From: Spirochaetota bacterium | GTDB taxonomy: Bacteria; Spirochaetota; UBA4802; JAKQUI01 | Reading direction: 5' to 3' | Length of the DNA stretch: 64,000 nt | NCBI GenBank assembly: GCA_029562645.1 | Contig: JAKQUI010000005.1 | Coordinates: 327,961-391,960 of the forward strand | Shown: piece after piece, positions 5,584-62,177 of the stretch | Layout of the letters: the number at the start of each line of letters is the position of its first letter | How positions within the stretch are numbered: the stretch's first letter is position 1 | Notes under the pieces: model-generated | Databases searched by the model: none | What the model was told of the DNA's origin: nothing | The model's input: the letters and a program-made list of their open reading frames with translations, nothing else | Program-made: the position numbers and the translations under genes

Positions 5584-5603
5584 GCGCCGCTCCGGGTGTG
5601 CCG

Positions 5604-11885: not shown

Positions 11886-12238
11886 GGATGCTCCTCCGGG
11901 CGTGGCGTGTACGACATGCTGCGTTCGTCGTCATTACGGGGAGCCTGTGCGAAGAGGCGACCGTCCGCCACCCCCGAGTGCCGGGAGGAACATGTTTCCT
12001 GGACCGCGCCGGACCCCGGATGCCGGGTCGGGCGGTCGCTGCAGGTCCACATGCTTCGTGCGCAATGACCGTAATGCACCGGCGCGGTTTTCGCGCGGAT
12101 GCGGTACGTCAATGCCGGTATCATGCGATGCGCCGCGGCGCTGTCAAGGAAAAATATACCCACTCCGTCCTGCGGACACCACCCGCGTCGCAAGGGGAAG
12201 GCGAGAGGGAAGAAGTAATCGGTATTTCCTAGGGCACT

Positions 12239-12261
12239 CCTCCCCCTAACGAAGGGGGAGG
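12239..12261. other. C-run/G-run hairpin (CCTCCCCC-taacgaa-GGGGGAGG) 12 nt downstream of the rRNA methyltransferase stop
   Basis: 8-bp perfect stem. Similar in flavour to the hairpin at 39971-39994. Confidence 0.3.
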
Positions 12262-12272
12262 CCGGGAGGGGG

Positions 12273-13415
12273 TCAGCGCCGGTCGAGGACGGCCAGCGTC
12301 TCGATGTGCGGGGTCTGCGGGAACATGTCATAGGCCTCGAATGACGTGAGGCGATATCCGTCGAGGCGCAGGAGGTCGTCCTTGAACGATTCCGGGTTGC
12401 ACGACATGTACACGATCCGCTCGGGGGCGAGCGCAGCGATGCGCTTGACGGCCGCGGGGTGCATGCCGGCGCGGGGCGGATCGAGCACGAGCGTGGTGCA
12501 GCGCCCCGTAAAGGTTGCGAGAAAATCGGCCGCATCGCCGTGGACGAAGGAGGCGTTGGCGATCCCGTTTTGTACGGCATTGGCGCGAGCGGCAGTGACC
12601 GCCTCCTCCACGATCTCCACGCCGGTCACGGTCTCGCAGGCGCCGGCGATGAAGAGGGTGATGCTGCCGATGCCGGCGTACAGGTCGAGCACGTGGCCGC
12701 GCGCATGCTCGCGGATGCGGCGGTACATGCGAAGCGCGATCTCGGAGTTGGACTGGAAGAAGGCGTTGGGCGCAATGGCAAAGCGCAGATCGTCCAGGCG
12801 TTCGTCGATGGCGCCGCCCTTCGCGTGTTCGAGTATCTCCCCGAAGCTCAGGTCGGCCCGTCCCGCGCTCAGGAGTATGGAGATCGACGCCACCCGGTCG
12901 GCCATCGCGGCGATGACCGGATCGAGACGACCGCGGCCGTCGGGCGAGGCCACCACGAAATTGAGCATCACCTCGCCGGTGAAGCGCCCCTGGCGGATCA
13001 CCACGTAGCGGAGATAGCCGGCATGGGCGAGGTAGTCGTAATCCTCGACGCCCGCGAGGAGCTCGCGGACCCGGCGAAAGGCCTCGTCCGCGGCGTCCTG
13101 CTGGATGCGGCACGAGCCGATATCGACGACGTGCTTGAAGCTCCCCGCGCGGCGCAGCCCGATCTTCCCGAAGGCGGTCACGAAGTCCATGCGGTTGCGG
13201 TAGCCGAAGGGATCGGCCGGCTGCACCGGACCGACGTCGATGGCGCCGTCGAAGAGCGCGGCGAGATGGTCGCGCTTGAGCGAAAGCTGGCTCTCGTAGG
13301 GCAGATGTTGGAGCGCGCACCCGCCGCACTCGCCGGCATGGGGGCAGGACGGATCGACGGCGACGTCGGCGTATCGCCTCGCGAGTTCGAGAAAGGCGCG
13401 CTTCTTTTTTTTCAT
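12273..13415 (-). CDS. 23S rRNA (uracil-C5)-methyltransferase, RlmD/RumA family
   Basis: It has an N-terminal Cys cluster (CPHAGECGGCALQH), a TRAM-like region, and a C-terminal class-I SAM methyltransferase fold. Likely start MKKKKRAFLE. Confidence 0.75.
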   Translation of the reverse strand: MKKKKRAFLELARRYADVAVDPSCPHAGECGGCALQHLPYESQLSLKRDHLAALFDGAIDVGPVQPADPFGYRNRMDFVTAFGKIGLRRAGSFKHVVDIGSCRIQQDAADEAFRRVRELLAGVEDYDYLAHAGYLRYVVIRQGRFTGEVMLNFVVASPDGRGRLDPVIAAMADRVASISILLSAGRADLSFGEILEHAKGGAIDERLDDLRFAIAPNAFFQSNSEIALRMYRRIREHARGHVLDLYAGIGSITLFIAGACETVTGVEIVEEAVTAARANAVQNGIANASFVHGDAADFLATFTGRCTTLVLDPPRAGMHPAAVKRIAALAPERIVYMSCNPESFKDDLLRLDGYRLTSFEAYDMFPQTPHIETLAVLDRR

Positions 13416-31648: not shown

Positions 31649-33043
31649 ATGAACCAGGCCCGATCCCGCAGCGGATTCAATCTTTCCCGTCGTCTTTATG
31701 GGCCGCGAAATCTCGGCTTTGTCCTCGCCGCGCTTCCCCTCGCGGCATTGCTCTATCAACATGACGCCGTGGCCGCGTGCTGGGGCGCGCTCGCGCTGAC
31801 CTGTTTTGCCTGGCCCCATGTCGCGTACTGGATCGCGCGGCGCGCGGACAACTCCAACCGTGCGGAGCTTCGAAACCTGCAGATCGACAGCGTGCTGGGG
31901 GGCGCCTGGTGCGCCGCGATCGGCTTTAACCCGCTGGTGGGGCCGGTCATGTTCTCGATGCTCATGATGGACGCGATCGCCGTGGGAGGCTCCCGGCTGC
32001 TCGCCAGGTGCCTGGCGGCGTACGCGGCGGCGGCGCTTGCCGGTGGACTGGTGACGGGCTTTCGGGTCGACGCCGGGATCAGCCTTATGACCGCACTTGC
32101 GTGCTTGCCGCTCATGATACTGTTTCCGTCCATCAACGGGACCATCGCCTATCTGCGCACGCGGCAGGTCGTGAGGCTGAAAAACGAGCTCGAGCGCCAG
32201 AAGGACGCGTTGTTCGACGTGCAGTTCAGGCTCGAGGAGGCGAACCGAGACCTGCGGGATACGAACGACACGCTTCGCCAGGCGCAACGGATCGCCGCGC
32301 ACGACATGCGGCTGGCCGCGAACGTGCAGATGAGCGTTCTTCCCGGCGCGGAGCCGAGCGTCGAGGGATGGGAGATCGCTTTTTACTTCAGACCCATGAG
32401 CGGCGTGTCGGGCGATTTCTACGATTTTTACGTCCGGGACGGGCGGCTCGAGGGGGTCGCGCTGTTCGATGTGTCCGGCCACGGCATATCGTCGGCGCTG
32501 ATCACGATGCTGGCCAAGTCGCTGCTCTACCGTCTGTTCGTGAGCGGTCTCGCGGGTCCGCTGGGTTCCGTCCTGACCGCGTTCAATCATGAGCTCTTCG
32601 GCGATATTGGGCAGTCGCAGTACTACTTGACCGGGGTGCTTCTGCGGATCGATGGCGACCGCGTGGAATATGTGAACGCCGCCCACCAGGAGATCGTCAG
32701 AAGGACCGCCCGCGGGGTCGAGCCGGTCCGTCCGGAAACGGACGAGCATCCGGGCGGCTTCTTCCTGGGTATATCCAGCGCGCCCCAGGAGTACGATGCG
32801 GTCGCGTTCGTCGTGGAGGCGGGGGAGCTGGTGCTGCTGTACACCGACTGCCTTTCCGAGGCGCGCAATGCCGAGGGGGAGCTCTACGGCCGAGAGCGTA
32901 TCTCGGCGTCGTTGTTGCGCGCGTCCGACACAAGCGCCCAGGCGGCGCTTTCCGGACTCTGCGAGGATTTCTATTCGTTTGTGAACGAGCGCGGCACCCT
33001 CAATGACGACCTGACGATCATCGTATTGCGAAAAACGGGGTGA
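31649..33043 (+). CDS. Membrane-anchored PP2C-type (SpoIIE/RsbU-like) serine phosphatase
   Basis: N-terminal polytopic region and a coiled-coil linker. PP2C motifs include FYDFYVRDGRLEGVALFDVSGHGISSALITM. Confidence 0.75.
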   Translation: MNQARSRSGFNLSRRLYGPRNLGFVLAALPLAALLYQHDAVAACWGALALTCFAWPHVAYWIARRADNSNRAELRNLQIDSVLGGAWCAAIGFNPLVGPVMFSMLMMDAIAVGGSRLLARCLAAYAAAALAGGLVTGFRVDAGISLMTALACLPLMILFPSINGTIAYLRTRQVVRLKNELERQKDALFDVQFRLEEANRDLRDTNDTLRQAQRIAAHDMRLAANVQMSVLPGAEPSVEGWEIAFYFRPMSGVSGDFYDFYVRDGRLEGVALFDVSGHGISSALITMLAKSLLYRLFVSGLAGPLGSVLTAFNHELFGDIGQSQYYLTGVLLRIDGDRVEYVNAAHQEIVRRTARGVEPVRPETDEHPGGFFLGISSAPQEYDAVAFVVEAGELVLLYTDCLSEARNAEGELYGRERISASLLRASDTSAQAALSGLCEDFYSFVNERGTLNDDLTIIVLRKTG

Positions 33044-37193: not shown

Positions 37194-37556
37194 ATGGCAC
37201 AGAAAACGAAATACAGCACCGACCCGGACACCCTCCTCGCGGAGTGCGAGGTCGACTATTACAGCGGGACCGGGAAGGGCGGGCAGAACCGCAACCGGCA
37301 CTACAATTGCGTGCGGCTTCGCCACCGCCCCACGGGGATCATCGCGGTGGGGACCGAGGAGCGCTCGCAGCGGAAAAACCGCGAGCTCGCGATCCGGCGG
37401 CTCGTGGAGCGGATCGAGGCGCTCAATTACGTGAAACCGAAGCGCGTCCCCACGAAGCCGTCGGCGGGCGCGAAGAAGGCGCGGATCGAATCGAAGACGC
37501 GTGTCGCGGTGAAAAAATCCGCGCGCAAGAAGGTTGCGAATGATGACGACGCCTAG
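37194..37556 (+). CDS. arfB: Alternative ribosome-rescue factor ArfB (peptidyl-tRNA hydrolase, GGQ)
   Basis: GTGKGGQNRNRHYNCVRLRH...RSQRKNRELAIRRL with a basic C-terminal tail. 120 aa. Confidence 0.75.
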   Translation: MAQKTKYSTDPDTLLAECEVDYYSGTGKGGQNRNRHYNCVRLRHRPTGIIAVGTEERSQRKNRELAIRRLVERIEALNYVKPKRVPTKPSAGAKKARIESKTRVAVKKSARKKVANDDDA

Positions 37557-38316
37557 CGGGCGAACGCGCGCATGTGCGATCATCATCGCGTTCTGTGCGG
37601 CAGCTCTCGTCGCGGCGCTGGCCGCGGCGGCGCTCGTGCACTACGGCGTCATCTGGCTGCATGATCCCGATCCCGTCCGCTATCCGGTGCGGGGCATCGA
37701 CGTGTCCCATCATCAGGGCGCGATCGAGTGGAGCGCGGTGGGCGCGCGGCGGATCGACTTCGCGTTTATCAAGGCGACCGAGGGCGGCGATCACGTCGAT
37801 TCGCGCTTCGCGGAAAACTGGCGCGGCGCGGCCTCGGCCGGGATCGCGCGGGGAGCCTATCACTTCTTTACGCTGTGCCGGGCGGGGAGCGAGCAGGCGC
37901 GCAACTTCATTAGCATCGTGCCGCGCGAGAATGGCGCGCTGCCGCCGGTCGTCGACCTGGAGTACGAGGGCAACTGCCGGAACCGGCCCGCGGAATTCGT
38001 CGTGCTCGACGAGATCAAGGCGTTCCTCGACGCAGTGGAGCGCCGCTACGGCGTGCGGCCCATCCTGTACGTGACCCGCGAGTTCTACGACCGGCACCTG
38101 CGCGGCGCCCTGCCGGGCTACCGGATATGGCTGCGCGCCGTGTACGAGCGGCCCGTACTCCCGGACGGTCGGGCCTGGGACTTCTGGCAGTACAGCTCGC
38201 GCGGCCGTGTCGCGGGGATCGACGGCCGGGTGGACCTCAACGTGTTCCGGGGAACGCGGCGCGAGTTCGACGCGCTGGTGTCGGCGAGCGGACGCGCCCC
38301 GGGAAGCGCGCCGTGA
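37534..38316 (+). CDS. Glycoside hydrolase family 25 muramidase (lysozyme) with N-terminal membrane anchor
   Basis: VRGIDVSHHQGAIEWSAVGARRIDFAFIKATEGGDHVDSRF is the GH25 signature. It overlaps the arfB 3' end by 23 nt. Confidence 0.8.
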   Translation: MRMMTTPSGRTRACAIIIAFCAAALVAALAAAALVHYGVIWLHDPDPVRYPVRGIDVSHHQGAIEWSAVGARRIDFAFIKATEGGDHVDSRFAENWRGAASAGIARGAYHFFTLCRAGSEQARNFISIVPRENGALPPVVDLEYEGNCRNRPAEFVVLDEIKAFLDAVERRYGVRPILYVTREFYDRHLRGALPGYRIWLRAVYERPVLPDGRAWDFWQYSSRGRVAGIDGRVDLNVFRGTRREFDALVSASGRAPGSAP

Positions 38317-44753: not shown

Positions 44754-45638
44754 CTATCGCCGTTTTCCCGGTCGTCCGGCGGGCGCGATGAGGTCCTGAT
44801 ACAGCTCGGCGATCGTGCCGAGGAGCCGGGTGCGCGCCGCGTCGCGTTCCGCGAAGTCCACCGTGTACTCGACGGCCAGGACCCATTTCCCGGCGTCGAT
44901 GTCGATGCGCAGCGAGAGCGCCGACACGCCGGGCAGGTTGCGTTCGATGGACGCGCGGATACGCTCCATGGGCGCGGCCCAGTCGCGCGGGGGCGTCTCG
45001 AGCGGGATCCGGATGGCGTCGGCAATGACGCCGCGACCGAAGTTGACGATGGGATGATCCAGCAGGGTCTTGTTGGGGATACGCACCACGCGCTCCGTGA
45101 CGTCCGGGCAGGGCCGCACCGACAGGTACATGGTGCCGATGCGGCTCACCAGGCCCGTGGTGTCGCCGATGCGAATGCCGTCCCCGATGCGCACCGGGTT
45201 TTTCAGGATGATGATGATCCATACGAGATACGACATGATGAGCTCGCGCATAGCCAGCGCGATCCCGGTGGCCACCAGGCCCACGAAGAGGGTGAGGTTC
45301 TGGAAGGACAACCCCAGGTGGACCAGCAGGAATAAAACCGGGATGAGGTAGAGCGCCCCCTTGTACAGCTTGGTGAGCAGAATGCGCTGCTCGATCTCCA
45401 CCTCGCCCTCGAGGAAGTGGAACACGCGGTTCTCGGTGAAACGCAGGATGACGTTCACCACCAGGAACCCGATGATGACGATCGAGAGCGTCCGCGCCGC
45501 CGTGATGATCTCCGGCGGGACGGGATAGAACCCCAGCAGGTTGACCAGGTAGACCGCTTCGTCCATGAACAGGATGGCGATCAGGAGCGCGATGCGGCGG
45601 TTGATGCGGGCGTTCGCGTTGAAGGGCAGCTTCATCAT
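44754..45638 (-). CDS. Small-conductance mechanosensitive channel MscS family
   Basis: Three TM helices, then GDGIRIGDTTGLVSRIGTMYLSV (the MscS beta-domain). The start MMKLPF gives a 4-nt overlap with the upstream gene. Confidence 0.75.
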   Translation of the reverse strand: MMKLPFNANARINRRIALLIAILFMDEAVYLVNLLGFYPVPPEIITAARTLSIVIIGFLVVNVILRFTENRVFHFLEGEVEIEQRILLTKLYKGALYLIPVLFLLVHLGLSFQNLTLFVGLVATGIALAMRELIMSYLVWIIIILKNPVRIGDGIRIGDTTGLVSRIGTMYLSVRPCPDVTERVVRIPNKTLLDHPIVNFGRGVIADAIRIPLETPPRDWAAPMERIRASIERNLPGVSALSLRIDIDAGKWVLAVEYTVDFAERDAARTRLLGTIAELYQDLIAPAGRPGKRR

Positions 45639-46729
45639 AGGTCTTTGAAGAGCGATTTTTCGACGTCCGCAATGCAGCGATCGAGACGGGTTTTGTCGAT
45701 GAGGCTCACGGTGGCGCGGTCGGTGAACGAGGCGGTGAACAGGAGCGCCCCGCCCTCGAACTCCCACCGGCCGATGTACATCTCCTCGTTCGCGTACACC
45801 GGCTCGCCCGCGACGCTGCGCATGAAGCGCAGGAGATCGACGATGTATCGCTGATCGGCGTCCGGCCGATAGACGACGATCTCGTAGGCCGCATCGGCGT
45901 TGTCGAAGGACACGCGGATCTCGCTCCGGTCGGCGAGCCGCGCGGTGACGATCGCCCGGCCGTTGCGGCATTTCCCCGGGGCCGTGTCGGCGCCGGGACG
46001 CGCGCCGAGCCGTGCGAGCGTGGACACCACGGCCGCGCGCGTATCGCCCAGGCGAAACTCCGCGAAGCGGAGCGTGGCCGGGGCCGATCCCGCGCGGGGG
46101 ACGAAGAGCGCCTTGAAGGCGTCGTAGCGCGTGCGCAGCGATTCACCCTGCATCCGTTCGTCGGCCGCGATGTCGCGGTAGGTGATGGCGACGCCGGTCG
46201 CAGTGTACTCGGCGTTGATGCCGTAGCGCCTGTTCTGCAGCCGCCACACCGCGCGCCAGATGAACCCGCGGTTCGCGCCGCCGCTCTCGACGGTGGTTTT
46301 CCCGTACTTGTTCTCCAGGAAGTTGAGCAGCTTGCTCAGGTAGATGGAGTCCTTGTCGCGCCCCAACAGCGTGGTGATGGCGTAGAGGGTCCCGGCGGCG
46401 TTGAAGCGCAGGATCACGCGCTCGTTGTTCTGCTCGTTCTGGGTGATGGTGATGGCGTTCGCGGCGGCGTCGTGCTGCGCGTCCATGCCCCGGTAGGAGG
46501 CCGCGATGATGCCGCGCGCCTCGGCGATCGACTGGCCGAGGCGGAACTCGCGGTAGCCGAGGCCGGTCTCCGCCGCCCCCGCGCCGGGGAGTGCGAGCAT
46601 GACGAGCAAGCAGCCGACGGCGGCGGTACGGCCCGACGGGCGGGCGCGGGTGTGGTTTCGAGCGCGCATACGCGGCCAGCACAGCACCGGCATCATAAAA
46701 TGGCCATAATTTTTTTGTTGATATTCCAT
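45635..46729 (-). CDS. Hypothetical exported protein with internal duplication
   Basis: Signal peptide. Two similar roughly 150-aa halves (LGYREFRLGQSIAEARGII / LRFAEFRLGDTRAAVVSTL). Confidence 0.55.
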   Translation of the reverse strand: MEYQQKNYGHFMMPVLCWPRMRARNHTRARPSGRTAAVGCLLVMLALPGAGAAETGLGYREFRLGQSIAEARGIIAASYRGMDAQHDAAANAITITQNEQNNERVILRFNAAGTLYAITTLLGRDKDSIYLSKLLNFLENKYGKTTVESGGANRGFIWRAVWRLQNRRYGINAEYTATGVAITYRDIAADERMQGESLRTRYDAFKALFVPRAGSAPATLRFAEFRLGDTRAAVVSTLARLGARPGADTAPGKCRNGRAIVTARLADRSEIRVSFDNADAAYEIVVYRPDADQRYIVDLLRFMRSVAGEPVYANEEMYIGRWEFEGGALLFTASFTDRATVSLIDKTRLDRCIADVEKSLFKDL

Positions 46730-50985: not shown

Positions 50986-51172
50986 GGGCGCGTCCGGTAC
51001 CGTTGGGACCATTCGTGGGGGGCGTCGATAAATGGCAAATACAATATGCCGACGGCCGGTGTGTCGCCCACACGGGGCCGAAAAAGAATATTGACACGGA
51101 TGCGGACACGCGGGTACGATCGTGCTGGGCCGTACAGGAATGCGCGGCCGACGACCGGTGCGGAGGATTGCG

Positions 51173-51817
51173 ATGAAACGGACATGTACCTGGCTGATGG
51201 CGCTGGCCGCGGCGACGGCGATCGGGTGCTCCACCATAGACGTTGCGGTGTTCCCCACCGCGGAGTTCCGGCAGCAGGTGAAGAAGATCGCGGTGATGCC
51301 CTTCAATTTCAAGGGACAGGACATCGGGCAGGATTTCGCCGGAGCGATCCGCACCTATCTCATGCAGGAGGCGCCGGGGCGCTTTATCATCGTCGAGCGC
51401 GAGGAGTTCGACCGCATCGTGGACGAGCAGAAGATGGGCGCCACGGGGCTGTTCGACGAGGGGCAGGCCGCCAAGCTCGGCAAGATGATCGGCGCGGACA
51501 TCATGATCGTGGGGCGCGGGGACGTGCTCGAGCTCACCGGCCCGGGCACCTATCCGGGCAAGCACATTCACACCTGCGAGATCAAGGTGGTGAGCGTGGA
51601 AAAGGGATCGCTCCTGGTGTCCCTTATCAAGACGCCGGGGATCGCATGGGATATGGGGTACCGGGCCAAGTGGTGTTTCTCGCCCTTCGGCGCGGGCATC
51701 TGGAAGGATGCAGATCTCGTCGCCCAGAGCTCGATGTACTCGAACCTGGCGCGGCAGTGCGTCAAGCGCATCCTCGGCGCGATCGAGCGCGTCGAGAAAC
51801 GGCCGCTGGGATACTGA
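51173..51817 (+). CDS. Lipoprotein, CsgG/LpoB-like fold
   Basis: Lipobox AIGCS. IIVEREEFDRIVDEQKMGATGLFDEGQAAKLGKMIGADIMIVG pattern. Confidence 0.55.
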   Translation: MKRTCTWLMALAAATAIGCSTIDVAVFPTAEFRQQVKKIAVMPFNFKGQDIGQDFAGAIRTYLMQEAPGRFIIVEREEFDRIVDEQKMGATGLFDEGQAAKLGKMIGADIMIVGRGDVLELTGPGTYPGKHIHTCEIKVVSVEKGSLLVSLIKTPGIAWDMGYRAKWCFSPFGAGIWKDADLVAQSSMYSNLARQCVKRILGAIERVEKRPLGY

Positions 51818-51902
51818 CGGGCGTGCGCATGTCGCGTATCATGAATGGCGTTCGCCTCAGTACGGTGCAGCCGACCCGACGCACGGAACGCGCCGCGTGA
51901 TC

Positions 51903-52688
51903 ATGGGTACGATCCGGACAGCAGTCGCGCGTATCGCCGCCGCGTTGGTCGTCGCCGCTGTCGCCATCACCCCCTGCGCCGCGATCGAGTTCGATGAGCT
52001 CGACAAGCCCCCGGAGGGGGCCCACAAGGGGCAGATGTTTCTCGGGGTCGTCATCTCGGTGGGCGCGCCGTCGGGCGAGCTCGTGGACGCGGAAACGGCC
52101 TTCGTGGACGGGTCCACCTATACCTTCGAAAACGAGGTGACCAAGCAGCTCAAGGTGTCGCACCTCTTCTTCGGCGTGGGGGCATCGTTCGAATACATGC
52201 CCATCGACCACGTGGGCGCCAAGACGCGCGCGATGCAAACCATCGTGGTGCAGCGCACGGAGTTCGGGACCGACTACGAGAACTGGCGGGAGAACCTTTA
52301 CACCTGCGGTGCGATCTACGCGGGGCCGGCCTTTCATCTCACCACGCGGCGGAGCTGGGACGTGACGCTCGCGGCGCTGGCGGGCTATGGGTGGGGCGAG
52401 TACGCGGCGACCCCCGTGGCCAAGAAGCTCATCGAGAACTATACGGGGGAAAATAAAAAAACCGCCTCGAGCTTCACCTATCTGGTGGAGCTCGCCTTCT
52501 GCGCCTACTTCAGCGGCGGGCTGTACTTCTCGATCGGCGGCGAGTTCATATCGTACGCCGTGGACTTCGGCAAGCCCTTCGAGCTGGTCAATCCCCAGAC
52601 GCAAAAGAAATACTATGAAGGGAAAAGCGCCGGCGCGATCACCTCGGTCAACTGCGTCCTCTCGATCGGGTACGCCTTCTCGAATTGA
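51903..52688 (+). CDS. Putative outer-membrane beta-barrel protein
   Basis: Signal peptide MGTIRTAVARIAAALVVAAVAITPCAA. Alternating amphipathic strands with C-terminal ...SIGYAFSN. Confidence 0.5.
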   Translation: MGTIRTAVARIAAALVVAAVAITPCAAIEFDELDKPPEGAHKGQMFLGVVISVGAPSGELVDAETAFVDGSTYTFENEVTKQLKVSHLFFGVGASFEYMPIDHVGAKTRAMQTIVVQRTEFGTDYENWRENLYTCGAIYAGPAFHLTTRRSWDVTLAALAGYGWGEYAATPVAKKLIENYTGENKKTASSFTYLVELAFCAYFSGGLYFSIGGEFISYAVDFGKPFELVNPQTQKKYYEGKSAGAITSVNCVLSIGYAFSN

Positions 52689-52796: not shown

Positions 52797-54656
52797 CTAC
52801 AGGATCTCGCAGCCGATGACAACCGAATCGTCCTCGGCCGGCGCGGCGCCGCGAAACGACGCAATCGCCTTCTCGACGCGGTCGAGTGCGTCTGAAAGCT
52901 CCAGGTGGGCGAATTCGTCAATTAAGGACAGCAGCCGCACGTACCCGAAGAGCTCGCCATCGGCAGTTCGGGTTTCGACGATCCCGTCGGTATAGAAAAA
53001 CACCCGGTCTCCAGTGCCCAATTCCAAGCGCATGTCGCAGAACGTTGCATGTGCAAAATGACCAATCACGGGCCCGTGGCAGACCAGGAATTCCGCCGGC
53101 CTTCCGCTGCGTTGAAGCACCGGTTCCGGATGCCCTCCCTTGGAAAAGGCCAGCGATACCGGGCCCTGTCCCGTCCAGGAAAAAAACGCATAGGCCGCGG
53201 TAAGATAATGTCCGGGCATGGCTCCGAGGAGATTCAGATTGAGCGTCCCGATGAAGCCCGCGGGATCGCGGTGGCTGGTGCGGAAAATCCGTTCCGACTC
53301 GGATTTCAGCAGGGCAAGGAACAGCGCGGCCGATACGCCGTGCCCCGAAACATCGCCAATGAGCAGGCCCAGCCCCTCGCTTGTCGCAGCGAAGGAGAAA
53401 TAATCGCCCCCCACCGCGTCCATGCTGTTCGAGCGGAAATCCGTGCGGACCCGTTCCGTTATCGGCGCCGATTGCGGCAGGAGGGCCCGCTGGATGCGCT
53501 GGGCGTGCAGGAGCTGTTCCTCGATTTGTTCATTGCGCGCGCTGAGCACCTCCCTGCTCTGTCGAAGCTCCGCTGCGGTCGCTATGCCCTGTTCAATCTC
53601 CCTGCGGAGGAGTATCTTTTCCGTCAGGTCGTGGGCGATGATCAGCACCGCGATGATGTCTCCCTCCCGGTCGTGCATGGCGCTGCCGCTGATGCGATGG
53701 GGGACCTCCCCGCCGCTGCGGGTGATCAGCGCGTCCTCGAGGGAAAATTCCTCACGATCCCCGGCGCGTACTGCGTCGAACAGAGTGCGAAATGCATCGC
53801 GATTCCGCAGGAATTCCGTAAAGGGCCGCCCGGCGAGCTCGGTCTCGCTCGATCCCAGCAGGGTCCCCGCCCAGGCGTTTACCTTCAACACCGTTCCGCC
53901 GGGATCGAGAAGGACAACAACGTCCCTGATGCGCTTGAGGATTTCACCTGAGGCGAAGGCCAGGGAAAGCGACAGCAGCTGGTAACGCACGATGGTGAAG
54001 AGCGTGCCCGCGGCGAGGAGAACGATGATCAGCGGCGAGAGTGATGGCATGGCGTACACGCCGATAAGCGGAAGCAGGATGTCGGATATAAAACAAAGTA
54101 AAAAGGTGAAGGATATGCAGATCGTGAGAATGGCCGACTGCTTTCGTTCGCGCCGCAACGGGCTTCGCAATCCCCAGCAGACAAGGATGATGAGGGCCAC
54201 GGAAATGCAGAGCACCTGATAGAGGATGAAGAACCAGTACCACGGTGAATCCGTGAGCGGAATCTCGATCCAGCCCAGCGGATGGCGATATAGCGCAAAG
54301 CCCTGAAAATGTCCCGTCCATTGCATGGCTAAAAGCAGAATCCCGGGCGCGTACAGCGCCGTTACGAACCAGGGATTTCTCGTTAAACCGGATCCGGCAA
54401 TGTATAATAACACATGGGCGGCCATGCCGCTGTAGAGACACCATGCGAGTGCGCTAATAGTGTACGCGGCGTATGCCATTTCGGGCGCATGGAACGCGTG
54501 CATCACCGCAAACGACGCGGCCCAAAGGCCGAAGAGGGCGCACAGGAGCGAGAAGACCCGATTAAGGCCGTCCCGAAGCCCCCTGCTGAGGATGAACCCG
54601 GCAAGGTAGAGATAAAAGAGCGATGCGGTCACATGAAGAAGGATGAAAACATTCAT
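52797..54656 (-). CDS. Polytopic membrane sensor with PAS domain and PP2C (SpoIIE-type) phosphatase
   Basis: About 7 N-terminal TM helices, a PAS region, and a C-terminal PP2C (GDYFSFAATSEGLGLLIGDVSGHGVSAALF). Confidence 0.75.
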   Translation of the reverse strand: MNVFILLHVTASLFYLYLAGFILSRGLRDGLNRVFSLLCALFGLWAASFAVMHAFHAPEMAYAAYTISALAWCLYSGMAAHVLLYIAGSGLTRNPWFVTALYAPGILLLAMQWTGHFQGFALYRHPLGWIEIPLTDSPWYWFFILYQVLCISVALIILVCWGLRSPLRRERKQSAILTICISFTFLLCFISDILLPLIGVYAMPSLSPLIIVLLAAGTLFTIVRYQLLSLSLAFASGEILKRIRDVVVLLDPGGTVLKVNAWAGTLLGSSETELAGRPFTEFLRNRDAFRTLFDAVRAGDREEFSLEDALITRSGGEVPHRISGSAMHDREGDIIAVLIIAHDLTEKILLRREIEQGIATAAELRQSREVLSARNEQIEEQLLHAQRIQRALLPQSAPITERVRTDFRSNSMDAVGGDYFSFAATSEGLGLLIGDVSGHGVSAALFLALLKSESERIFRTSHRDPAGFIGTLNLNLLGAMPGHYLTAAYAFFSWTGQGPVSLAFSKGGHPEPVLQRSGRPAEFLVCHGPVIGHFAHATFCDMRLELGTGDRVFFYTDGIVETRTADGELFGYVRLLSLIDEFAHLELSDALDRVEKAIASFRGAAPAEDDSVVIGCEIL

Positions 54657-55699
54657 GTCGCAAGACCCGCGTCGTTAAAAAATTGCAGGACGCGCAGCGT
54701 CGTCCACTTTCGCGCCTCTTCGTCGTCGATCGTTCGCCGGCTCCCGAACAACATCCCGCTGGAGAAGCGCTCCATGGCCCAGGTGCCGTCGGCGTTTTGC
54801 TTCTCGATGAGCGTATTGAACGCCTCGCCGCTGCGGCTGTCGTCGATGCGTCCGGTGCCCGCGACGACCGAAAGCCCCGCCAGGATGTCGTAGTGCGTCA
54901 TGAGCGGATAGCCCAACGACGACCATTCGTGCAGCCCGCCGCGCTCGCACCGCGACGGAATATCGGAGCGGTTCGGCCGGACGAAGCAGCGATGCGCGAG
55001 AAAAAATTCTGCGGCGCCGTCAAGGGCGCCCTCGGGGGCGCGCCCGGTCGTCCGGGCATGGCGCAGCAATGCGTCGGTGCAGGCATGGGTCGCGATGGGG
55101 CAGCTCGGCACGGCCGTACGCCCCTCGCGGCGCAGGCCTCCACCCGAGCGTCCCAGAAGGACCAGTCCCAGCGCGTCGCGCCATCCCTCCTGCGGGCAGT
55201 GCAGCCAGCCGCCGTCACTGCGCTGGCGCTCCCGGATCCACGAAAGTCCACGGAGCACGCGCGCGTCATCGGCATAGCCGGCTTCGATGAGCGCGCGCAG
55301 CATGTCGCCGGTCCGGCAGGCGAGGGCGATCGCGGGGCGCCAGGCGAGCGTGAATCCTCCGTCCGGTAGCTGGCATCGGGCCAGAATGCGCTCGGCGGTG
55401 TCGCGGACGAAATCGTCGCGCCGATCGAAACCCAGCGCGACCGCCTCGATGAAGCGCCACATCATCCCGCTGCCGTAGAGGTCGAAGCGCCGCGCATCGC
55501 CCACGACCCCGCCGTGTATCGCGCGCCTCAGTCGCGCCGCATGCGCCGTGCCAGACAGGCGTTCGCGCGCCTCGCGCAGTTCGGCGTCATCGTCGGTGAG
55601 CCCCACGAGGTCGCGGAGCGTGCGATAGCGGAGATGCGGATGGCGCGCCTCGAGCAGGAGCGGAATCGGATCGGCGGCGAGGTAGCGCGAGGCCGTCAT
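54653..55699 (-). CDS. Prenyltransferase/squalene-cyclase-repeat (alpha-alpha toroid) protein
   Basis: QW-like repeats (RERQRSDGGW, IEKQNADGTW, CQLPDGGF). The start MTASRYLAAD overlaps the M23 gene stop by 4 nt. Confidence 0.5.
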   Translation of the reverse strand: MTASRYLAADPIPLLLEARHPHLRYRTLRDLVGLTDDDAELREARERLSGTAHAARLRRAIHGGVVGDARRFDLYGSGMMWRFIEAVALGFDRRDDFVRDTAERILARCQLPDGGFTLAWRPAIALACRTGDMLRALIEAGYADDARVLRGLSWIRERQRSDGGWLHCPQEGWRDALGLVLLGRSGGGLRREGRTAVPSCPIATHACTDALLRHARTTGRAPEGALDGAAEFFLAHRCFVRPNRSDIPSRCERGGLHEWSSLGYPLMTHYDILAGLSVVAGTGRIDDSRSGEAFNTLIEKQNADGTWAMERFSSGMLFGSRRTIDDEEARKWTTLRVLQFFNDAGLAT

Positions 55700-57438
55700 T
55701 GCTCGTACTCGTAGGTCAAGGGGGCCGATCGGTTTCCGGCGCGATCGACGATGGTCATCGTGACCGTATGCGCGCCCTTGGCCCAGATGGGATTGTGCGG
55801 CAGGATCACCACGGCCCGGTAATCGACGTCGAAATACCAGAAGACGCTCTTCCCGTCCACCGCGAGGGAAATCTTCGACAGGTCCACGCCGCTTCCCCGG
55901 TCGGATACGGTGAAGCGAAGCTGCGTGTTCGGCCGCGGCCGTTTCGGGTTGCGGTGGCGGATGACCGGCGGGATCTCGTCCCGCGCCAGCACATAGCGGC
56001 CCATGCGCCTCACGGTGGCGTAAAAGGCGCGCTCCTTTGGATGGTAGCTGTTCGACACGAAGCCGATCCCGGTCCCCGCCGCGTTCACGGAATAGATCCC
56101 CACCGTGCGATGATCGGCGCCGTCGTAGGCGATGCGTATGCGCGCCGTCGAATCGATGCACAGGTGCGTGGGCGTTACGGCGTAGCGCGCGCTCAAAACG
56201 GGAAGGCCCGAGAGAACGTTTTGGGGAAGGGGCGATTGTTCCATGGCCACCATTTCCGGGTAGAGCGCCGCTGTATCCGGGAAGGAGAGCGTACAGCGCC
56301 CGTCGGCGCTCGTAAGGACAAGGGCCGATCCCGGGACGAGGTTGTGGTCGAACCCCGGCGCGGGTTCCGGTGCCGGCGGCTCCGCACGGCAGGAGAACTC
56401 GATGATCGAGCGGTTCAGGCGGGCGTCAAAGAACTCGGCGCGGGCCCGGCGCGTCCCCCCCGGCGCACCGGCGTTTATCACGCCGTCCCCGCTGGTGCGC
56501 GCATAGAGGTAAAAGGTGAAATGCCGCGAGTTCGAGGTGTCGTAATCGTAGATGAGTCCCATGCGGTGGGTGTAGGCGCGGACGATCTTGTCGAAGAAAA
56601 GCCGGTGCCGCTTGACGCCGTCGACGTACCAGTTGAACCCGTAGGCGGTGACCTTGTTCCGCCAGCCCACGGTGTCGTGGACGCGCGCCTTCACGCCCAC
56701 GCGCCCCGCGATGCGGGGAACGACGTTCCCCGCCAGGACATAACGGCCCTCTTTCCGGTTGACGAGCGTGGCGCGATAGGCCTTTTCGCCGGGCGTGCCG
56801 TCCACACGGGAAAAGCGGTCGAGCGGCGTGAGGTAGACCGTTTCGATGACCGGCGCGGTGGCGTCCGGGACCCACAGCGCATAGCGAAGCGGGTTGAGGT
56901 GGACATTGTTCTTGTCGCGCACCTCGAAGTGGAAATGCTCGAGCCCCGCGCCGCTGTCGCCCGAGTAGCCGATCGGGGTTCCCCGGCGCAGCGGAATCTC
57001 GGGCTTCGAGAAATCGACGCGAAAATCGCGGTGATTGCGGATGTGCTCGATGTGCCGCCGGACCCGCGCATTGGCGAGGATGCCGTCGGCGAAGCGGTCC
57101 ATGTGGCCGTAGAAGGTCGTGCGGCCGTCGGGATGGCGGACGAATACCGCGTACCCGATCCCGTAATTCTCGTACATGACGGCGCTTACGTAGCCGCGCT
57201 CGGCCGCCACGACGCGGAACCCGCGTTTGCCGCCGGTGCTCACGTCAAGCCCGTGATGAAACCGCGTGGAGCGGAACTCGCCGAAGGTGCTGGTGACCCG
57301 CTTGGGAACATCGATGGGCCAGCGGTAGGATTGCGCGCCGGCCTCCGGCGCGCTCGAGACGGCCAGCAGCGCCGCGGAACACACAATCGCAACCCTGCGA
57401 GCGATCATGCCGGGCGGCTGCGATCGGATGCGGAGCAT
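55696..57438 (-). CDS. M23-family metalloendopeptidase (LytM-like) with long C-terminal extension
   Basis: Signal peptide. HHGLDVSTGGK...YGHMDRF matches the M23 HxxxD / HxH zinc ligands. 580 aa. Confidence 0.8.
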   Translation of the reverse strand: MLRIRSQPPGMIARRVAIVCSAALLAVSSAPEAGAQSYRWPIDVPKRVTSTFGEFRSTRFHHGLDVSTGGKRGFRVVAAERGYVSAVMYENYGIGYAVFVRHPDGRTTFYGHMDRFADGILANARVRRHIEHIRNHRDFRVDFSKPEIPLRRGTPIGYSGDSGAGLEHFHFEVRDKNNVHLNPLRYALWVPDATAPVIETVYLTPLDRFSRVDGTPGEKAYRATLVNRKEGRYVLAGNVVPRIAGRVGVKARVHDTVGWRNKVTAYGFNWYVDGVKRHRLFFDKIVRAYTHRMGLIYDYDTSNSRHFTFYLYARTSGDGVINAGAPGGTRRARAEFFDARLNRSIIEFSCRAEPPAPEPAPGFDHNLVPGSALVLTSADGRCTLSFPDTAALYPEMVAMEQSPLPQNVLSGLPVLSARYAVTPTHLCIDSTARIRIAYDGADHRTVGIYSVNAAGTGIGFVSNSYHPKERAFYATVRRMGRYVLARDEIPPVIRHRNPKRPRPNTQLRFTVSDRGSGVDLSKISLAVDGKSVFWYFDVDYRAVVILPHNPIWAKGAHTVTMTIVDRAGNRSAPLTYEYEQ

Positions 57439-57451
57439 GCGCGGCTGTCGG

Positions 57452-58225
57452 CTACTTCTTGGTCAGCTTTTCGGCCCGGCTCAGGTTGTCGAAGATGGCC
57501 GTGTTTTCGGGGGCCAGCTTCTGCGCCTTCCGGTAGGCCTCGACGGCCTCGGCGTTCTTGCCCAGCAGCTCGTAGCTGAGCGCGAGGTTGTTGAGGATGA
57601 TGCCGGAGGACGGCATGAGCTCGTGCGCCGTCGCGAACGCGGTGTTCGCCTCCGAGTACCGCTTGAGGCGCATCAGGGCCATCCCCAGGGCGTGGTACGA
57701 TGCGTACAGGGCCGGGTCCATCGAGATGGATTTTTCGAGCAGCTCCTTGGCGCGCCAGGCGTTGCGGTTCGCCAGCGCCATGCGGCCCCAGATGTAGTAA
57801 AACATCGGATCGTCCTTGATCTTCCGGCCCTTCCGGAGGAAGGAATCGGCCTCTTTCAGTTTCCGGTGCTCGACGAGCATGAGCGCCGCGTCGATGTACG
57901 GGTCCGGGGTGGCGCGGTCGATCTCGGCGCATTTCCTGAAGTGCGAGAGCGCGCCCTTGAGGTTCCCCTTCTTCCAGTGGGCATGGGCCGCGAGAAAGCG
58001 CAGGCGATAGTTGGGTGAGCCGGGCTCGCGGTCGCGCTTCGCGTCCAAGGTGTCGGTGATGGTTTTGAGCGCGTCATCGTACTTGTTCTGTTGGAACAGT
58101 TTTAACGCATCGTCGTAGCTGTCGGCGCTCGCCGGCAGGGCCACGCACAATATCGCACATAGGAGCAGGATCGTTTTCATCTCGGTTTTCCTGGGGGAAT
58201 GATGGTCCGGCGCCGATGCGTACAT
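57452..58225 (-). CDS. Tetratricopeptide-repeat protein, exported
   Basis: Signal peptide. Repeated A/Y/L 34-aa TPR units. Confidence 0.7.
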   Translation of the reverse strand: MYASAPDHHSPRKTEMKTILLLCAILCVALPASADSYDDALKLFQQNKYDDALKTITDTLDAKRDREPGSPNYRLRFLAAHAHWKKGNLKGALSHFRKCAEIDRATPDPYIDAALMLVEHRKLKEADSFLRKGRKIKDDPMFYYIWGRMALANRNAWRAKELLEKSISMDPALYASYHALGMALMRLKRYSEANTAFATAHELMPSSGIILNNLALSYELLGKNAEAVEAYRKAQKLAPENTAIFDNLSRAEKLTKK

Positions 58226-58243: not shown

Positions 58244-61117
58244 TTACTTCTTGCCTTTTTTCTTCGCGGTTTTTTTCGGCGCGGCCTTCTTCTTCGGGGC
58301 CGGTTTCTTTTTCGCCGGAGCCGCCTTCTTCTTCGCCGCGGGCTTTTTCGGCGCGGCCTTCTTCTTCGGCGCCGCTTTCTTCACCGCCGGTTTCGCCTTC
58401 GGCAGGGCGGCGCCGCGCACCGCCGCCTGGGCCGCCGCGAGACGCGCGATGGGCACGCGGAACGGCGAGCAGCTCACATACGACAGGCCGATCATGTGGC
58501 AGAACTCGACCGAGCTCGGCTCGCCGCCGTGCTCGCCGCAGATGCCCAGCTTGATGTCCTTACGGACGCTGCGGCCCTTTTCGACGGCCATGCGCATCAG
58601 CACGCCCACGCCGTCGCGGTCGAGCTGCTGGAACGGGTCAACCGGCAGGATCTTCTTCTCGACGTAATCCGGCACAAAGCCGCCGATGTCGTCGCGCGAG
58701 AAACCGAAGGTCATCTGCGTCAGGTCGTTGGTGCCGAAGGAGAAGAACTCGGCCGTCTTCGCGATCCGGTCGGCGGTGATGGCCGCGCGGGGTATCTCGA
58801 TCATGGTGCCGAACATGTGTTCGATCTTCGAGACGCCCATCTTCTTGCATACCGCGGCGTGGACCGCGTCCAGGAGCTTCTTCTGGTCATCCAGCTCGTT
58901 CACATGGCCTACCACGGGGATCATGATCTCAGGGACGACCTTTTTGCCCTCTTTGTTGAGCTCGGCCGCGGATTCGAGAATGGCGCGGTACTGCATCTCG
59001 GAGATCTCGGGGAAGGTGACGCCCAGGCGCACGCCGCGGTGCCCCATCATGGGGTTCGATTCGTGCAGATCCTCGGCCCGCTTGGTGAGCCGGTCCATGC
59101 CGATGCCCAGCGCCGAGGCGAGCTTCTCGCGCTCGTCCTGGCGGGTGGGCACGAACTCATGCAGCGGCGGGTCCAGCAGCCGGATGGTCACCGGGAGCGG
59201 GCTCATCACCGCCAGCGTGCTCTTGATGTCGCGCTTCACGAAGGGAAAGAGCTCGTCGAGCGCGGCGCGGCGCTTCTCCTCGGTGTCGGAGAGGATCATC
59301 TTGCGCAGGATAAACAGCGGCTGCTCGGAGTTCTTTCCGTAGAACATGTGCTCGGTGCGGAAGAGGCCGATCCCCTCCGCGCCGAACTCGCGCGCCTTGG
59401 CGGCGTCCTCGGGGGTGTCGGCGTTGGTGCGCACCTTGAGGGTCCGCATCTCGTCGGCGATCTTCATGAACTTTTGGAAGCGCGGGTTTTCGGTGGCGTC
59501 CATCATCGCCAGCGCCCCGGCGTAAACGAAGCCGCGCGTGCCGTTCAGGGTGAGGGTTTCGCCCTCGCGGAAGGTGCGCCCGTCGACCGTCATGGTCTTC
59601 GCGTGCACGTCCACGTGGATGGCGCCCGCGCCCACGATGCAGCACTTGCCCCAGCCGCGCGCCACCAGCGCCGCGTGCGAGGTCATGCCGCCGCGCGCGG
59701 TGAGGATGCCCACGGCCGCGCGCATCCCCTCGACGTCCTCGGGGTTGGTCTCTTCGCGCACCAGGAGCACCTTCTTGCCGGCTTTCGCGGCCTCGACGGC
59801 GTCGGTCGCGGTGAAGACGATCTCGCCGCAGGCGCCGCCGGGACCGGCGGGCAGGCCGCGCGCGATCACCGTCGCGCTCTTCTCGGCGTTCGGATCGACG
59901 ATGGGGTGCAAGAGCTCGTCGAGCTGCGCGGGTGCCACGCGCATCACGGCCTCCTTCTTGCTGATGAGCCCCTCGGCCAGCATGTCCATGGCCATGTTGA
60001 GCGCGGCGGTGCCGGTGCGCTTGCCCACGCGGCACTGCAGCATCCACAGGCGCCCGTCCTGGATGGTGAATTCGATGTCCTGCATGTCCGTGTAATGCTT
60101 CTCGAGCTTGTTTCGAATGGCGTCCAGCTGCTTGTAGGCGGGCGCCATCCCCCGCTCGAGGGACGGAAGGTGCTTGTTCTGGTCGTTCTTGGTCGATTCG
60201 TTGATGGGGTTGGGCGTGCGGATGCCCGCGACCACGTCCTCGCCCTGCGCATTGGGGAGCCACTCGCCGTAGAACTTGTTGTCGCCGGTGGCCGGGTTGC
60301 GCGTGAAGGCCACGCCGGTGGCCGAGGTGTCTCCCATGTTGCCGAATACCATCGATTGCACGTTCACCGCGGTGCCCCACTCGTCCGGGATGCTCTCGAT
60401 GCGGCGGTAGGCGATGGCGCGCTTGCCGTTCCACGACGAGAACACGGCGCCGATGCCGCCCCAGAGCTGCTCGTAGGCGTCGTCCGGGAAGTCCTTTCCG
60501 AGGATCTCGCGCACCTTCGCCTTGAAGCGTTCGACGAGGCTCTTGAGATCGTCCGCGGAGATGTCGGCGTCGGTCTTGTAGCCGCGGGACTTTTTCAGGT
60601 CGCCCAGCATGCGGTCGAGCTGCTGGCGGATGCCCATGCCCTCGGCGGGTTCGATGCCGGCGGCCTTTTCCATCACCACGTCCGAATACATCATGATGAG
60701 GCGGCGATAGGCGTTGTATACGAAACGCGGATTGTTGGTTTTCTTGATGAGGCCGGGGATGGTCTTGGAGCACAGGCCCACGTTGAGGACCGTTTCCATC
60801 ATGCCGGGCATCGAGGCGCGCGCGCCGGAGCGGACGGATATGAGGAGCGGGTTTTCACTGTCGCCGAAGCGGGCGCCCATGATCTGCTCGACCTTTTTCA
60901 TGGCCGCCATGACCTCTTCGCGCAGACCCGCGGGAAATTTCCGGCCGATCTCATAGTATTCGTTGCAGACCTCCGTGGTGATGGTGAAGCCGGCCGGGAC
61001 GGGGATGCCGATCTTGCTCATCTCGGCGAGGTTCGCGCCCTTGCCGCCCAGGAGGTTCTTCATCGTCGAGTCCCCGTCGGCCTTCGCGCCGCCAAAAAAA
61101 TACACTCGTTTTGCCAT
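58244..61117 (-). CDS. ppdK: Pyruvate, phosphate dikinase with K/A/P-rich C-terminal tail
   Basis: MAKRVYFFGGAKADGDSTMKNLLGGKGANLAEM at the N-terminus, and the catalytic His region GGMTSHAALVARGWG. It ends SPFRVPIARLAAAQAAV, followed by about 59 aa of PKAKPAVKKAAPKKKAAPKK...KKGKK. Confidence 0.9.
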   Translation of the reverse strand: MAKRVYFFGGAKADGDSTMKNLLGGKGANLAEMSKIGIPVPAGFTITTEVCNEYYEIGRKFPAGLREEVMAAMKKVEQIMGARFGDSENPLLISVRSGARASMPGMMETVLNVGLCSKTIPGLIKKTNNPRFVYNAYRRLIMMYSDVVMEKAAGIEPAEGMGIRQQLDRMLGDLKKSRGYKTDADISADDLKSLVERFKAKVREILGKDFPDDAYEQLWGGIGAVFSSWNGKRAIAYRRIESIPDEWGTAVNVQSMVFGNMGDTSATGVAFTRNPATGDNKFYGEWLPNAQGEDVVAGIRTPNPINESTKNDQNKHLPSLERGMAPAYKQLDAIRNKLEKHYTDMQDIEFTIQDGRLWMLQCRVGKRTGTAALNMAMDMLAEGLISKKEAVMRVAPAQLDELLHPIVDPNAEKSATVIARGLPAGPGGACGEIVFTATDAVEAAKAGKKVLLVREETNPEDVEGMRAAVGILTARGGMTSHAALVARGWGKCCIVGAGAIHVDVHAKTMTVDGRTFREGETLTLNGTRGFVYAGALAMMDATENPRFQKFMKIADEMRTLKVRTNADTPEDAAKAREFGAEGIGLFRTEHMFYGKNSEQPLFILRKMILSDTEEKRRAALDELFPFVKRDIKSTLAVMSPLPVTIRLLDPPLHEFVPTRQDEREKLASALGIGMDRLTKRAEDLHESNPMMGHRGVRLGVTFPEISEMQYRAILESAAELNKEGKKVVPEIMIPVVGHVNELDDQKKLLDAVHAAVCKKMGVSKIEHMFGTMIEIPRAAITADRIAKTAEFFSFGTNDLTQMTFGFSRDDIGGFVPDYVEKKILPVDPFQQLDRDGVGVLMRMAVEKGRSVRKDIKLGICGEHGGEPSSVEFCHMIGLSYVSCSPFRVPIARLAAAQAAVRGAALPKAKPAVKKAAPKKKAAPKKPAAKKKAAPAKKKPAPKKKAAPKKTAKKKGKK
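58247..58425 (-). repeat. Imperfect tandem DNA repeats (GCCTTCTTCTTCGGCGC-like) encoding the KAAP tail of PPDK
   Basis: Visible degenerate periodic repeats on the plus strand at 58250-58420. Confidence 0.5.
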
Positions 61118-61214: not shown

Positions 61215-62177
61215 TTACAAATACCGCTTTATCTCGCGCAAAAAGCACACGTCGAAATCCTCGCAGGAGGCGCACCGCGCACTCTCGCCGAGCCGCTCCG
61301 GGCAGGGTCCGCCGCGGTCCTCGGTCATGATCGACAGGAGTTTGATGCGCTGATATTCGTCGTCGCTGAGCGCCTCGGGCCCCTCCGCGCGAACGCGGGT
61401 GAGCATGGCCAGCTTCTCCTCCCTGCCGCGCGCATCGCTATAGTCCGGTTTGGCCCGCATGAGCGAATCGTATTCGTTGAGCTTTTTCTGGGCGCGGACC
61501 TGCGCGATCTTTCCCTTGAACGACAGGGTGCGCCGTTGGAAAATGAGAAAGAACACGATGCCGAAGAAGAGCCCGCCCAGGTGGCCGATGTGCGATATAT
61601 TGCTCGCCCCGCCGAAGAGTTCGAAATACAGTTCGAGCCCCCCATAGAGCAGCACCAGGTATTTCGCCTTGATGGGGATGAAGAAGAACAGCAGCAGCTC
61701 CATGTTCGGATAGAGCACCCCGAAGGCCAGCAGGAGGCCGAACACCGCGCCCGAGGCGCCGATCGTCGGGAGGTAGAACCCCATGCCGCCCGAGATGAGG
61801 TTGATGAGGAAGATGGCGACGCCGGCGCCCGTGCCGCAGAAGACGTAGTAGAGCAGAAAGCGCCGGCTCCCCCACGCCTGCTCGATGGGTATGCCGAAGA
61901 TGAGGATCGCGTACATGTTGAAGAAAATATGGAAGAAGCTGTGCGTGCTGTGGAGGAACATGTACGAGAAGAACTGCCAGAGGTAGCCCTTGCCGATCAC
62001 CAGCGCGGGGGTGAGGCCCAGAAAGTGGGTCATCGGAGAGACGCCCGGACCCATCCCCCCGCCGGGGTCGGGCCGCCCCGAGGACTCGCTGAATATCTGC
62101 AGGATGAAGATGACGACGTTGGCTGCGATAATCTTGAACACCACGCCGCGCGCATCCGATCGGGAAAAGCCGTTCAT
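61215..62177 (-). CDS. Rhomboid-family intramembrane serine protease with C-terminal Cys-rich cytoplasmic extension
   Basis: GASGAVFGLLLAFG (GxSG catalytic Ser) and a downstream His helix. C-terminal CPERLGESARCASCEDFDVC. Confidence 0.75.
   Translation of the reverse strand: MNGFSRSDARGVVFKIIAANVVIFILQIFSESSGRPDPGGGMGPGVSPMTHFLGLTPALVIGKGYLWQFFSYMFLHSTHSFFHIFFNMYAILIFGIPIEQAWGSRRFLLYYVFCGTGAGVAIFLINLISGGMGFYLPTIGASGAVFGLLLAFGVLYPNMELLLFFFIPIKAKYLVLLYGGLELYFELFGGASNISHIGHLGGLFFGIVFFLIFQRRTLSFKGKIAQVRAQKKLNEYDSLMRAKPDYSDARGREEKLAMLTRVRAEGPEALSDDEYQRIKLLSIMTEDRGGPCPERLGESARCASCEDFDVCFLREIKRYL

Follow-up and report, generated by a model that had tools for sequence, protein, structure and literature searches.

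Three adjacent genes in a Spirochaetota bacterium raise the question of whether tight physical coupling signifies a common function. They lie in a 64,000-nucleotide (nt) stretch of contig JAKQUI010000005.1 (assembly GCA_029562645.1, positions 327,961 to 391,960 of the forward strand), which is the whole of the DNA analyzed here and is called the window below. In order of transcription on the minus strand, they encode a secreted M23 peptidase, a cytoplasmic protein with an alpha/alpha-toroid fold, and a membrane-bound PP2C phosphatase, and each gene overlaps the next by 4 nt. A preliminary description of the locus had regarded the trio as a coupled module of nonstandard composition. Our analysis favors a different reading, to which we assign a probability of roughly 0.8: the trio is a species-specific juxtaposition at the end of an unremarkable operon with tight gene spacing, with each protein most likely acting alone. 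The coordinates, the strand, and the 4-nt overlaps given for the trio were confirmed, as was the presence upstream, in the same-strand run, of a gene for a tetratricopeptide repeat (TPR) protein and of ppdK. The toroid protein, previously given as 349 amino acids (aa), has 348 aa plus the stop codon. The genes and junctions concerned, with the basis of each assignment, are as follows.

55696-57438, minus strand: secreted M23 (LytM-type) peptidase, 580 aa (open reading frame [ORF] list and Pfam)
54653-55699, minus strand: cytoplasmic alpha/alpha-toroid protein with QW repeats, 348 aa (ORF list and family profile)
52797-54656, minus strand: sensor phosphatase with seven transmembrane (7TM) segments of the HisKA_7TM type, a PAS domain, and a PP2C domain (SpoIIE/RsbU-type), 619 aa (Pfam)
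55696-55699, minus strand: 4-nt stop-start overlap, ATGA, of the M23 and toroid genes (sequence)
54653-54656, minus strand: 4-nt stop-start overlap, ATGA, of the toroid and PP2C genes (sequence)
57452-58180, minus strand: secreted TPR protein, 13 nt upstream of the M23 gene (Pfam TPR families)
58244-61117, minus strand: ppdK, pyruvate phosphate dikinase, at the head of the conserved syntenic run (Pfam)
61215-62177, minus strand: rhomboid-family membrane protease, the upstream limit of the syntenic block (Pfam Rhomboid and synteny)
51903-52688, plus strand: convergent gene for a secreted beta-rich protein of ~260 aa (recurrent neighbor of the toroid gene)
51122-51817, plus strand: CsgG/LpoB-like lipoprotein, encoded ahead of the convergent gene on the same strand (Pfam)

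The PP2C gene of the window thus separates the toroid gene from the convergent secreted-protein gene. Two further ORFs at the locus were rejected. A 502-aa toroid ORF with a GTG start was judged an out-of-frame artifact, given that toroid homologues start at ATG, and a minus-strand ORF at 51762-52604 was a shadow of the plus-strand convergent gene.

The evidence that carries our reading comes from related loci, which were collected from two directions. For the M23-first sample, one genome per species was scanned, and full-length M23 orthologues turned up at 18 loci, each belonging to uncultured Spirochaetota or Leptospirales. The toroid-first sample came from a metagenome scan and comprised 80 loci, 69 informative upstream of the toroid gene and 11 too short. 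Scoring of the downstream side pooled the metagenome loci, the reference-genome loci, and the metagenome contig L003 into 92 toroid loci, with 84 informative. The order rhomboid, ppdK, TPR, M23, toroid was found in 11 of the 18 M23-first loci and in L003, where the contig sufficed, and ppdK of the relatives was syntenic and 57-78% identical. No phosphatase gene followed the toroid gene in any of these 11 loci or in L003; the next gene in most of them was a convergent homologue of the gene at 51903-52688. A PP2C gene followed the toroid gene in 1 of the 84 informative loci (1 of the 80 from the metagenome scan), and that locus, L029, belongs to a strain of the window species (98-100% identical). 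The co-occurrence check that the preliminary description had suggested, for the three families across genomes, therefore found the trio in no other species, and what stood of the supposed module was a clade-limited synteny of the M23 and toroid genes. The association of these two genes is itself uneven. In 7 of the 18 M23 orthologue loci, the M23 gene has metabolic genes as neighbors and neither a TPR nor a toroid gene alongside, and these seven loci are nested within toroid-linked lineages in a neighbor-joining tree. Adjacency of the pair was seen in 11/18 M23-first loci versus 11/69 informative toroid-first loci. We conclude that the M23-toroid pair is a real synteny within one Spirochaetota subclade and that the PP2C gene at this site is an insertion specific to the window species. 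The closest database copies are annotated as Spirochaetota metagenome-assembled genomes (MAGs).

The toroid gene was found in several different settings. Upstream of it, the 80 toroid-first loci showed the following contexts.

11 loci: M23 gene (L029 included)
11 loci: TPR gene directly, with no M23 gene between
17 loci: IspD-family cytidylyltransferase gene, the stop of which overlaps the toroid start by 4-11 nt
20 loci: divergent genes for a small membrane protein and a zinc-ribbon/DUF4389 protein
10 loci: something else
11 loci: too short to tell

These contexts largely track the clades of the toroid tree, which is the pattern predicted by inheritance with occasional rearrangement. The IspD-family overlap occurs in a low-GC clade (31-41%) made up of L052, L056-L058, L060, L063, L064, L068, L073, L074, L076, L078, L079, L082, L083, L086, and L098. 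In the context with the divergent pair, ~500 nt upstream of the toroid gene hold no ORF of at least 110 aa (L042, positions 5473-5994, where the longest ORF is 54 aa, and the equivalents in L032, L035, and L050). The steadiest neighbor of the toroid gene is the convergent secreted-protein gene, which lies tail-to-tail after it in 65 of the 84 informative loci and in all upstream contexts. Its ~260-aa product had no Pfam, NCBIfam, or PDB match. On its own strand it is preceded in 26 related loci by a CsgG/LpoB-like lipoprotein gene; the copy in the window (51122-51817, plus strand) scores 37.7 bits for Pfam CsgG and 23.3 bits for LpoB. In the three loci tested from another clade (L032, L042, and L050, ~7190-7860), the toroid and convergent genes are separated by a gene for an FKBP-type peptidyl-prolyl isomerase, and L043 and L053 contain similar ORFs of 164-169 aa. 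Since this is the slot used by the PP2C gene in the window, the site seems to be insertion-prone. The other neighbors of the toroid family gave no sign of a tie to peptidoglycan, and distant family members in other phyla have unrelated gene neighbors.

We read the two overlaps as operon compaction and coexpression rather than as a common mechanism, given that the M23 and toroid genes each often occur without the other, that the toroid gene overlaps an IspD-family gene equally tightly elsewhere, and that the inner membrane separates the M23 protein from the toroid protein. The window has many such tight junctions: by our own gap count, 9 of 36 same-strand adjacent pairs are spaced at -8 to +6 nt, among them a third 4-nt overlap at 11882-11885, where cstA meets the ORF at 11882-12580 on the minus strand. 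Judging from the ATGA overlaps, the trio is likely to be cotranscribed and translationally coupled. The promoter and terminator scan found no terminator above shuffled expectation, and a terminator-like site at 54705-54688 falls within the toroid coding region.

The first protein had been described as a secreted peptidase with a C-terminal extension, and both the family and the layout held. Pfam Peptidase_M23 (PF01551) matched the 580-aa protein at 48.5 bits against a cutoff of 28.7, and a signal peptide is followed by a catalytic domain at approximately residues 40-190 and by three C-terminal beta-sandwich domains. The AlphaFold2 (AF2) model (mean predicted local distance difference test score [pLDDT], 87.7) likewise shows a LytM domain and then the three beta-sandwich domains. 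A helical insert (residues 118-134) splits the catalytic domain, so that Pfam aligns only residues 59-117. In Foldseek, the LytM domain matched those of DipM, EnvC, StM23, and Csd proteins at target TM-scores of 0.6-0.79, lysostaphin was also matched, and the beta-sandwich domains matched Ig-like adhesin domains. The zinc-binding and catalytic set HxxxD, H, HxH (H61, D65, H112, H168, and H170) is invariant in 17 aligned orthologues, from which the protein looks like an active enzyme and not a degenerate LytM factor. It shares the LytM fold, the HxxxD...H...HxH set, the signal peptide, and the presence of extra noncatalytic domains with the periplasmic M23/LytM endopeptidases MepM/ShyA, Csd1-3, and DipM, but it differs from them in its split catalytic domain (an insert of ~25 residues) and in having three C-terminal beta-sandwich domains instead of LysM or coiled-coil regions. 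Full-length relatives with at least 40% identity came from uncultured Spirochaetota only; more distant relatives that align over the full length (23-28% identity) include Bacteroidota MAGs.

For the second protein, the QW repeats and the toroid fold that had been described were both upheld. Sequence prediction gave no signal peptide and no membrane segment. The protein scores just under the Pfam threshold for SQHop_cyclase_C (PF13243; 25.7 versus 26.1 bits) and far under the cutoff of TIGR03463 (33.7 versus 851 bits), and the family to which it belongs has no Pfam family of its own. An exhaustive search at an E value of <=1e-3 returned 519 cluster representatives, with lengths of ~320-360 aa among those listed, and the members with cluster records read were unnamed or labeled hypothetical. 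A profile built from the family aligned with several of the QW repeats in squalene-hopene cyclase (SHC). The AF2 model is an alpha/alpha toroid with a predicted TM-score (pTM) of 0.81, and its best structural matches were SHC, drimenyl diphosphate synthase, MstE, and AprG, all with TM-scores of <=0.5. In the profile, the GGF motif, a loop, an inner helix, an outer helix, and QxxDGGW are colinear with the catalytic repeat of SHC, and the DxDDTA motif of SHC aligns to A-C128-R-T-G of the toroid protein. This stretch is weak alone (12 bits) and was aligned only to SHC chains in which residue 376 is Cys; the spacing and the flanking motifs around C128 agree with the SHC alignment. The toroid protein therefore lacks the acid with which class II cyclases carry out protonation. 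MstE, an established monodomain cyclase of comparable length, still relies on a DxD motif (PMC12324236). The toroid protein therefore resembles MstE and SHC in its alpha/alpha-toroid fold with QW repeats, and MstE also in being a single domain of ~350 aa, but it carries A-C-R-T instead of the DxDD of SHC or the DxD of MstE, remains below the Pfam cutoff and at or below a TM-score of 0.5, and has a conserved Cys/His/Asp set instead.

Among members of the close subfamily, C200, C207, and D271 never vary, and 22 of 25 sequences carry C128 and H167; the N-terminal TDDD of the window protein is not conserved among homologues. By our own reading of the AF2 helix boundaries, all five residues fall at, or close to, the N termini of consecutive helices. 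The active sites of other toroid enzymes sit at the N-terminal ends of helices. Collectively, C128, H167, C200, C207, and D271 could make up a site for a metal. The preliminary description had also allowed for an ordinary enzyme, for example one resembling LanC, but little spoke for this: no LanC model matched the toroid protein, and neither a protein farnesyltransferase nor a LanC sequence from the PDB was found at an E value of <=10. PF00432 matched weakly in 5 of 49 family members. A LanC-like or prenyltransferase identity, having no model or PDB sequence support, is considered unlikely. A thioester-domain toroid of the alpha-2-macroglobulin/C3d type was set aside as well, with weak fold matches, no signal peptide, and no CGEQ motif by eye. 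As judged from its profile, the toroid protein is a member of an unnamed family related to the monodomain class II terpene cyclases, with Cys in place of the catalytic acid.

The third protein, of 619 aa, is the 7TM-PAS-PP2C phosphatase that had been described, with HisKA_7TM, PAS, and SpoIIE all above their Pfam cutoffs (SpoIIE, PF07228, 117 bits versus 25). Its PP2C metal-binding motifs, GGD418, D435xSGHG, TD557G, and D609D610, are invariant in the alignment. In these respects it resembles the sensor PP2C proteins of the RsbU/SpoIIE type, which combine a SpoIIE domain bearing all of the metal-binding Asp motifs with N-terminal sensor modules. It departs from the RsbU-RsbV-RsbW arrangement in that a search for a partner, also suggested by the preliminary description, found no STAS antagonist or anti-sigma kinase among the ORFs scanned across the window, and in that its 7TM region is of the HisKA_7TM type. 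Three full-length orthologues of the phosphatase, at 55, 46, and 40% identity, occur in neighborhoods that are unrelated; a 349-aa gene upstream of the closest of them (L022) was tested as a toroid homologue and proved unrelated. SpoIIE-domain genes are abundant in these genomes: the window holds another, and an 18-kb stretch of L023 holds three. The GC content at third codon positions (GC3) of the PP2C gene is 0.727 compared to a window mean of 0.839 (standard deviation [SD], 0.074), which is ~1.5 SD lower. A search for flanking repeats that would mark a mobile element around the gene gave only short chance matches, and alignment of the intergenic DNA to L003 in search of an insertion scar was uninformative past the end of the convergent gene.

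Several observations weigh against so simple a reading as juxtaposition. Of 23 loci with the M23 gene upstream of the toroid gene, 18 keep the ATGA overlap, and the pairing is maintained where protein identity is as low as 40-57% and over a span of locus GC contents of 44-65%; such persistence is more than a simple neighborhood requires. No obvious Shine-Dalgarno sequence was seen by eye at either junction of the trio, and the toroid and PP2C genes may therefore rely on upstream translation for their expression, which would tie their dosages together in the window species. A link of the toroid protein to the cell envelope is also conceivable. The isoprenoid connection, in turn, is weakened to a suggestion by the IspD-family neighbor, which passes the ispD model in 2 of 3 loci tested and also passes a model for ribitol-5-phosphate cytidylyltransferase. 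The persistence of the overlap would suit a true functional pair of the M23 and toroid proteins in one Spirochaetota subclade, to which the PP2C gene was a later addition; the toroid protein could, for example, be a cytoplasmic lipid-handling or chaperone-like partner made in a fixed ratio with the exported hydrolase. We consider this unlikely, given that the two proteins occupy different compartments, one with a signal peptide and the other without, that 7 of the 18 M23 loci lack the toroid gene, that equally similar toroid orthologues lack the M23 gene in most loci, that in another clade the overlap of the toroid gene with the IspD-family gene is equally close, and that the contexts track phylogeny as vertical inheritance predicts. 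Somewhat more doubtful still is the possibility that the toroid protein represents an undescribed enzyme family that performs metal- or thiol-based isoprenoid chemistry through its Cys/His/Asp cluster, in a spirochete-specific modification of envelope lipids or lipoproteins. This was considered because the pairing with the convergent secreted-protein gene persists and because of the IspD-family overlap in one clade; if it is true, the M23/TPR neighborhood could reflect envelope remodeling.

The phosphatase suggests two further explanations, in which it would act together with its neighbors. One is that the trio is a newly assembled signaling module of the window species, with the 7TM-PAS PP2C sensing the state of the envelope or its lipids and controlling the peptidase or the toroid protein. 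The ATGA overlap ties the PP2C gene to the toroid gene, and there is a precedent in Sinorhizobium meliloti, where the 7TM receptor RgsP and the M23 protein RgsM were reported to interact and colocalize (PMC6107284). By analogy, this pair is the closest functional precedent for a 7TM signaling protein with an M23 peptidase, in that a polytopic 7TM-PAS signaling protein is associated with an M23 peptidase in both cases (PMC6107284). However, RgsP acts through GGDEF/EAL domains (cyclic di-GMP) and not through PP2C; neither this output nor the periplasmic 7TMR-DISMED2 domain of RgsP was found in the window PP2C. The association in the window is an adjacency confined to a single species, the PP2C orthologues sit in other contexts, and the ORFs scanned in the 64 kb hold no STAS or anti-sigma partner, which together make such a module highly improbable. 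The other explanation, a developmental pair resembling SpoIIQ and SpoIIE of Bacillus, was refuted by the tests made and is close to impossible. An M23 fold adjoins a polytopic membrane PP2C in both systems, the NCBIfam SpoIIQ model matches the M23 protein weakly, and SpoIIQ appeared in Foldseek among many LytM domains. Nevertheless, the SpoIIQ score is 20.6 bits against an equivalog cutoff of 250, the catalytic residues of the window peptidase are fully conserved, so that it is no inactive LytM scaffold, and the adjacency is not conserved. SpoIIE has ten transmembrane segments and an FtsZ-binding region, whereas the membrane region of the window protein is a 7TM HisKA_7TM unit followed by PAS. 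The preliminary description had offered this likeness as an analogy only, and rightly so.

Under the juxtaposition that we favor, the ancestral block would have consisted of the rhomboid gene, ppdK, the secreted TPR gene, and the toroid gene, facing a convergent unit of the CsgG-like and secreted-protein genes. The block would then have been changed at two sites: in one subclade, a gene for a periplasmic M23 endopeptidase came to lie between the TPR and toroid genes, and in the window species alone, one of the many sensor PP2C genes of the genome came to separate the toroid gene from its convergent neighbor. The M23 enzyme is predicted, from its full zinc-binding and catalytic set, to cut peptidoglycan cross-links in the periplasm, where its beta-sandwich domains probably position it. 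The toroid protein would work in the cytoplasm and is probably a noncanonical isoprenoid-binding or isoprenoid-modifying protein, a role proposed because of its homology to the class II cyclase catalytic repeat and the start overlap with an IspD-family gene in another subclade. The PP2C would dephosphorylate a phosphoserine partner encoded elsewhere, upon a signal sensed by its membrane region or its PAS domain.

Apart from the trio and its neighbors, the following features of the window were recorded.

31649-33043, plus strand: second SpoIIE-type phosphatase, with a MASE2 membrane sensor
8875-9891, minus strand: 338-aa secreted beta-rich protein ending in ...FNLY, in a low-GC island
5604-6794 and 6801-8750, minus strand: high-GC3 ORFs without a Pfam match, adjoining parA/parB (3963-5583)
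11882-12580, minus strand: high-GC3 ORF without a Pfam match, overlapping cstA (10140-11885) by 4 nt
45635-46729, minus strand: high-GC3 ORF without a Pfam match

The gene at 8875-9891 has a GC content of 0.51 and a GC3 of 0.48, compared to the window GC3 mean of 0.84, and may be foreign; its product had no Pfam or PDB match. At 37194-38316 on the plus strand, the genes for a 120-aa RF-1-domain protein and for a GH25 muramidase (its longest ORF) overlap; the muramidase, a further cell-wall hydrolase encoded in the window, has no connection with the trio. Scans of the 64 kb for tRNA genes and Rfam families found no tRNA gene and no family at its gathering score, and the cumulative GC skew rises steadily across positions 1-64000 without a switch.

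In summary, this locus is mainly a caution for the reading of gene order. Two ATGA overlaps and an odd mix of domains looked like a new module, and ~100 related loci showed a lineage-specific juxtaposition. The lead that remains is a modest one, namely, the unnamed toroid family and its conserved convergent partner; the family is suited to heterologous expression and lipid analysis.

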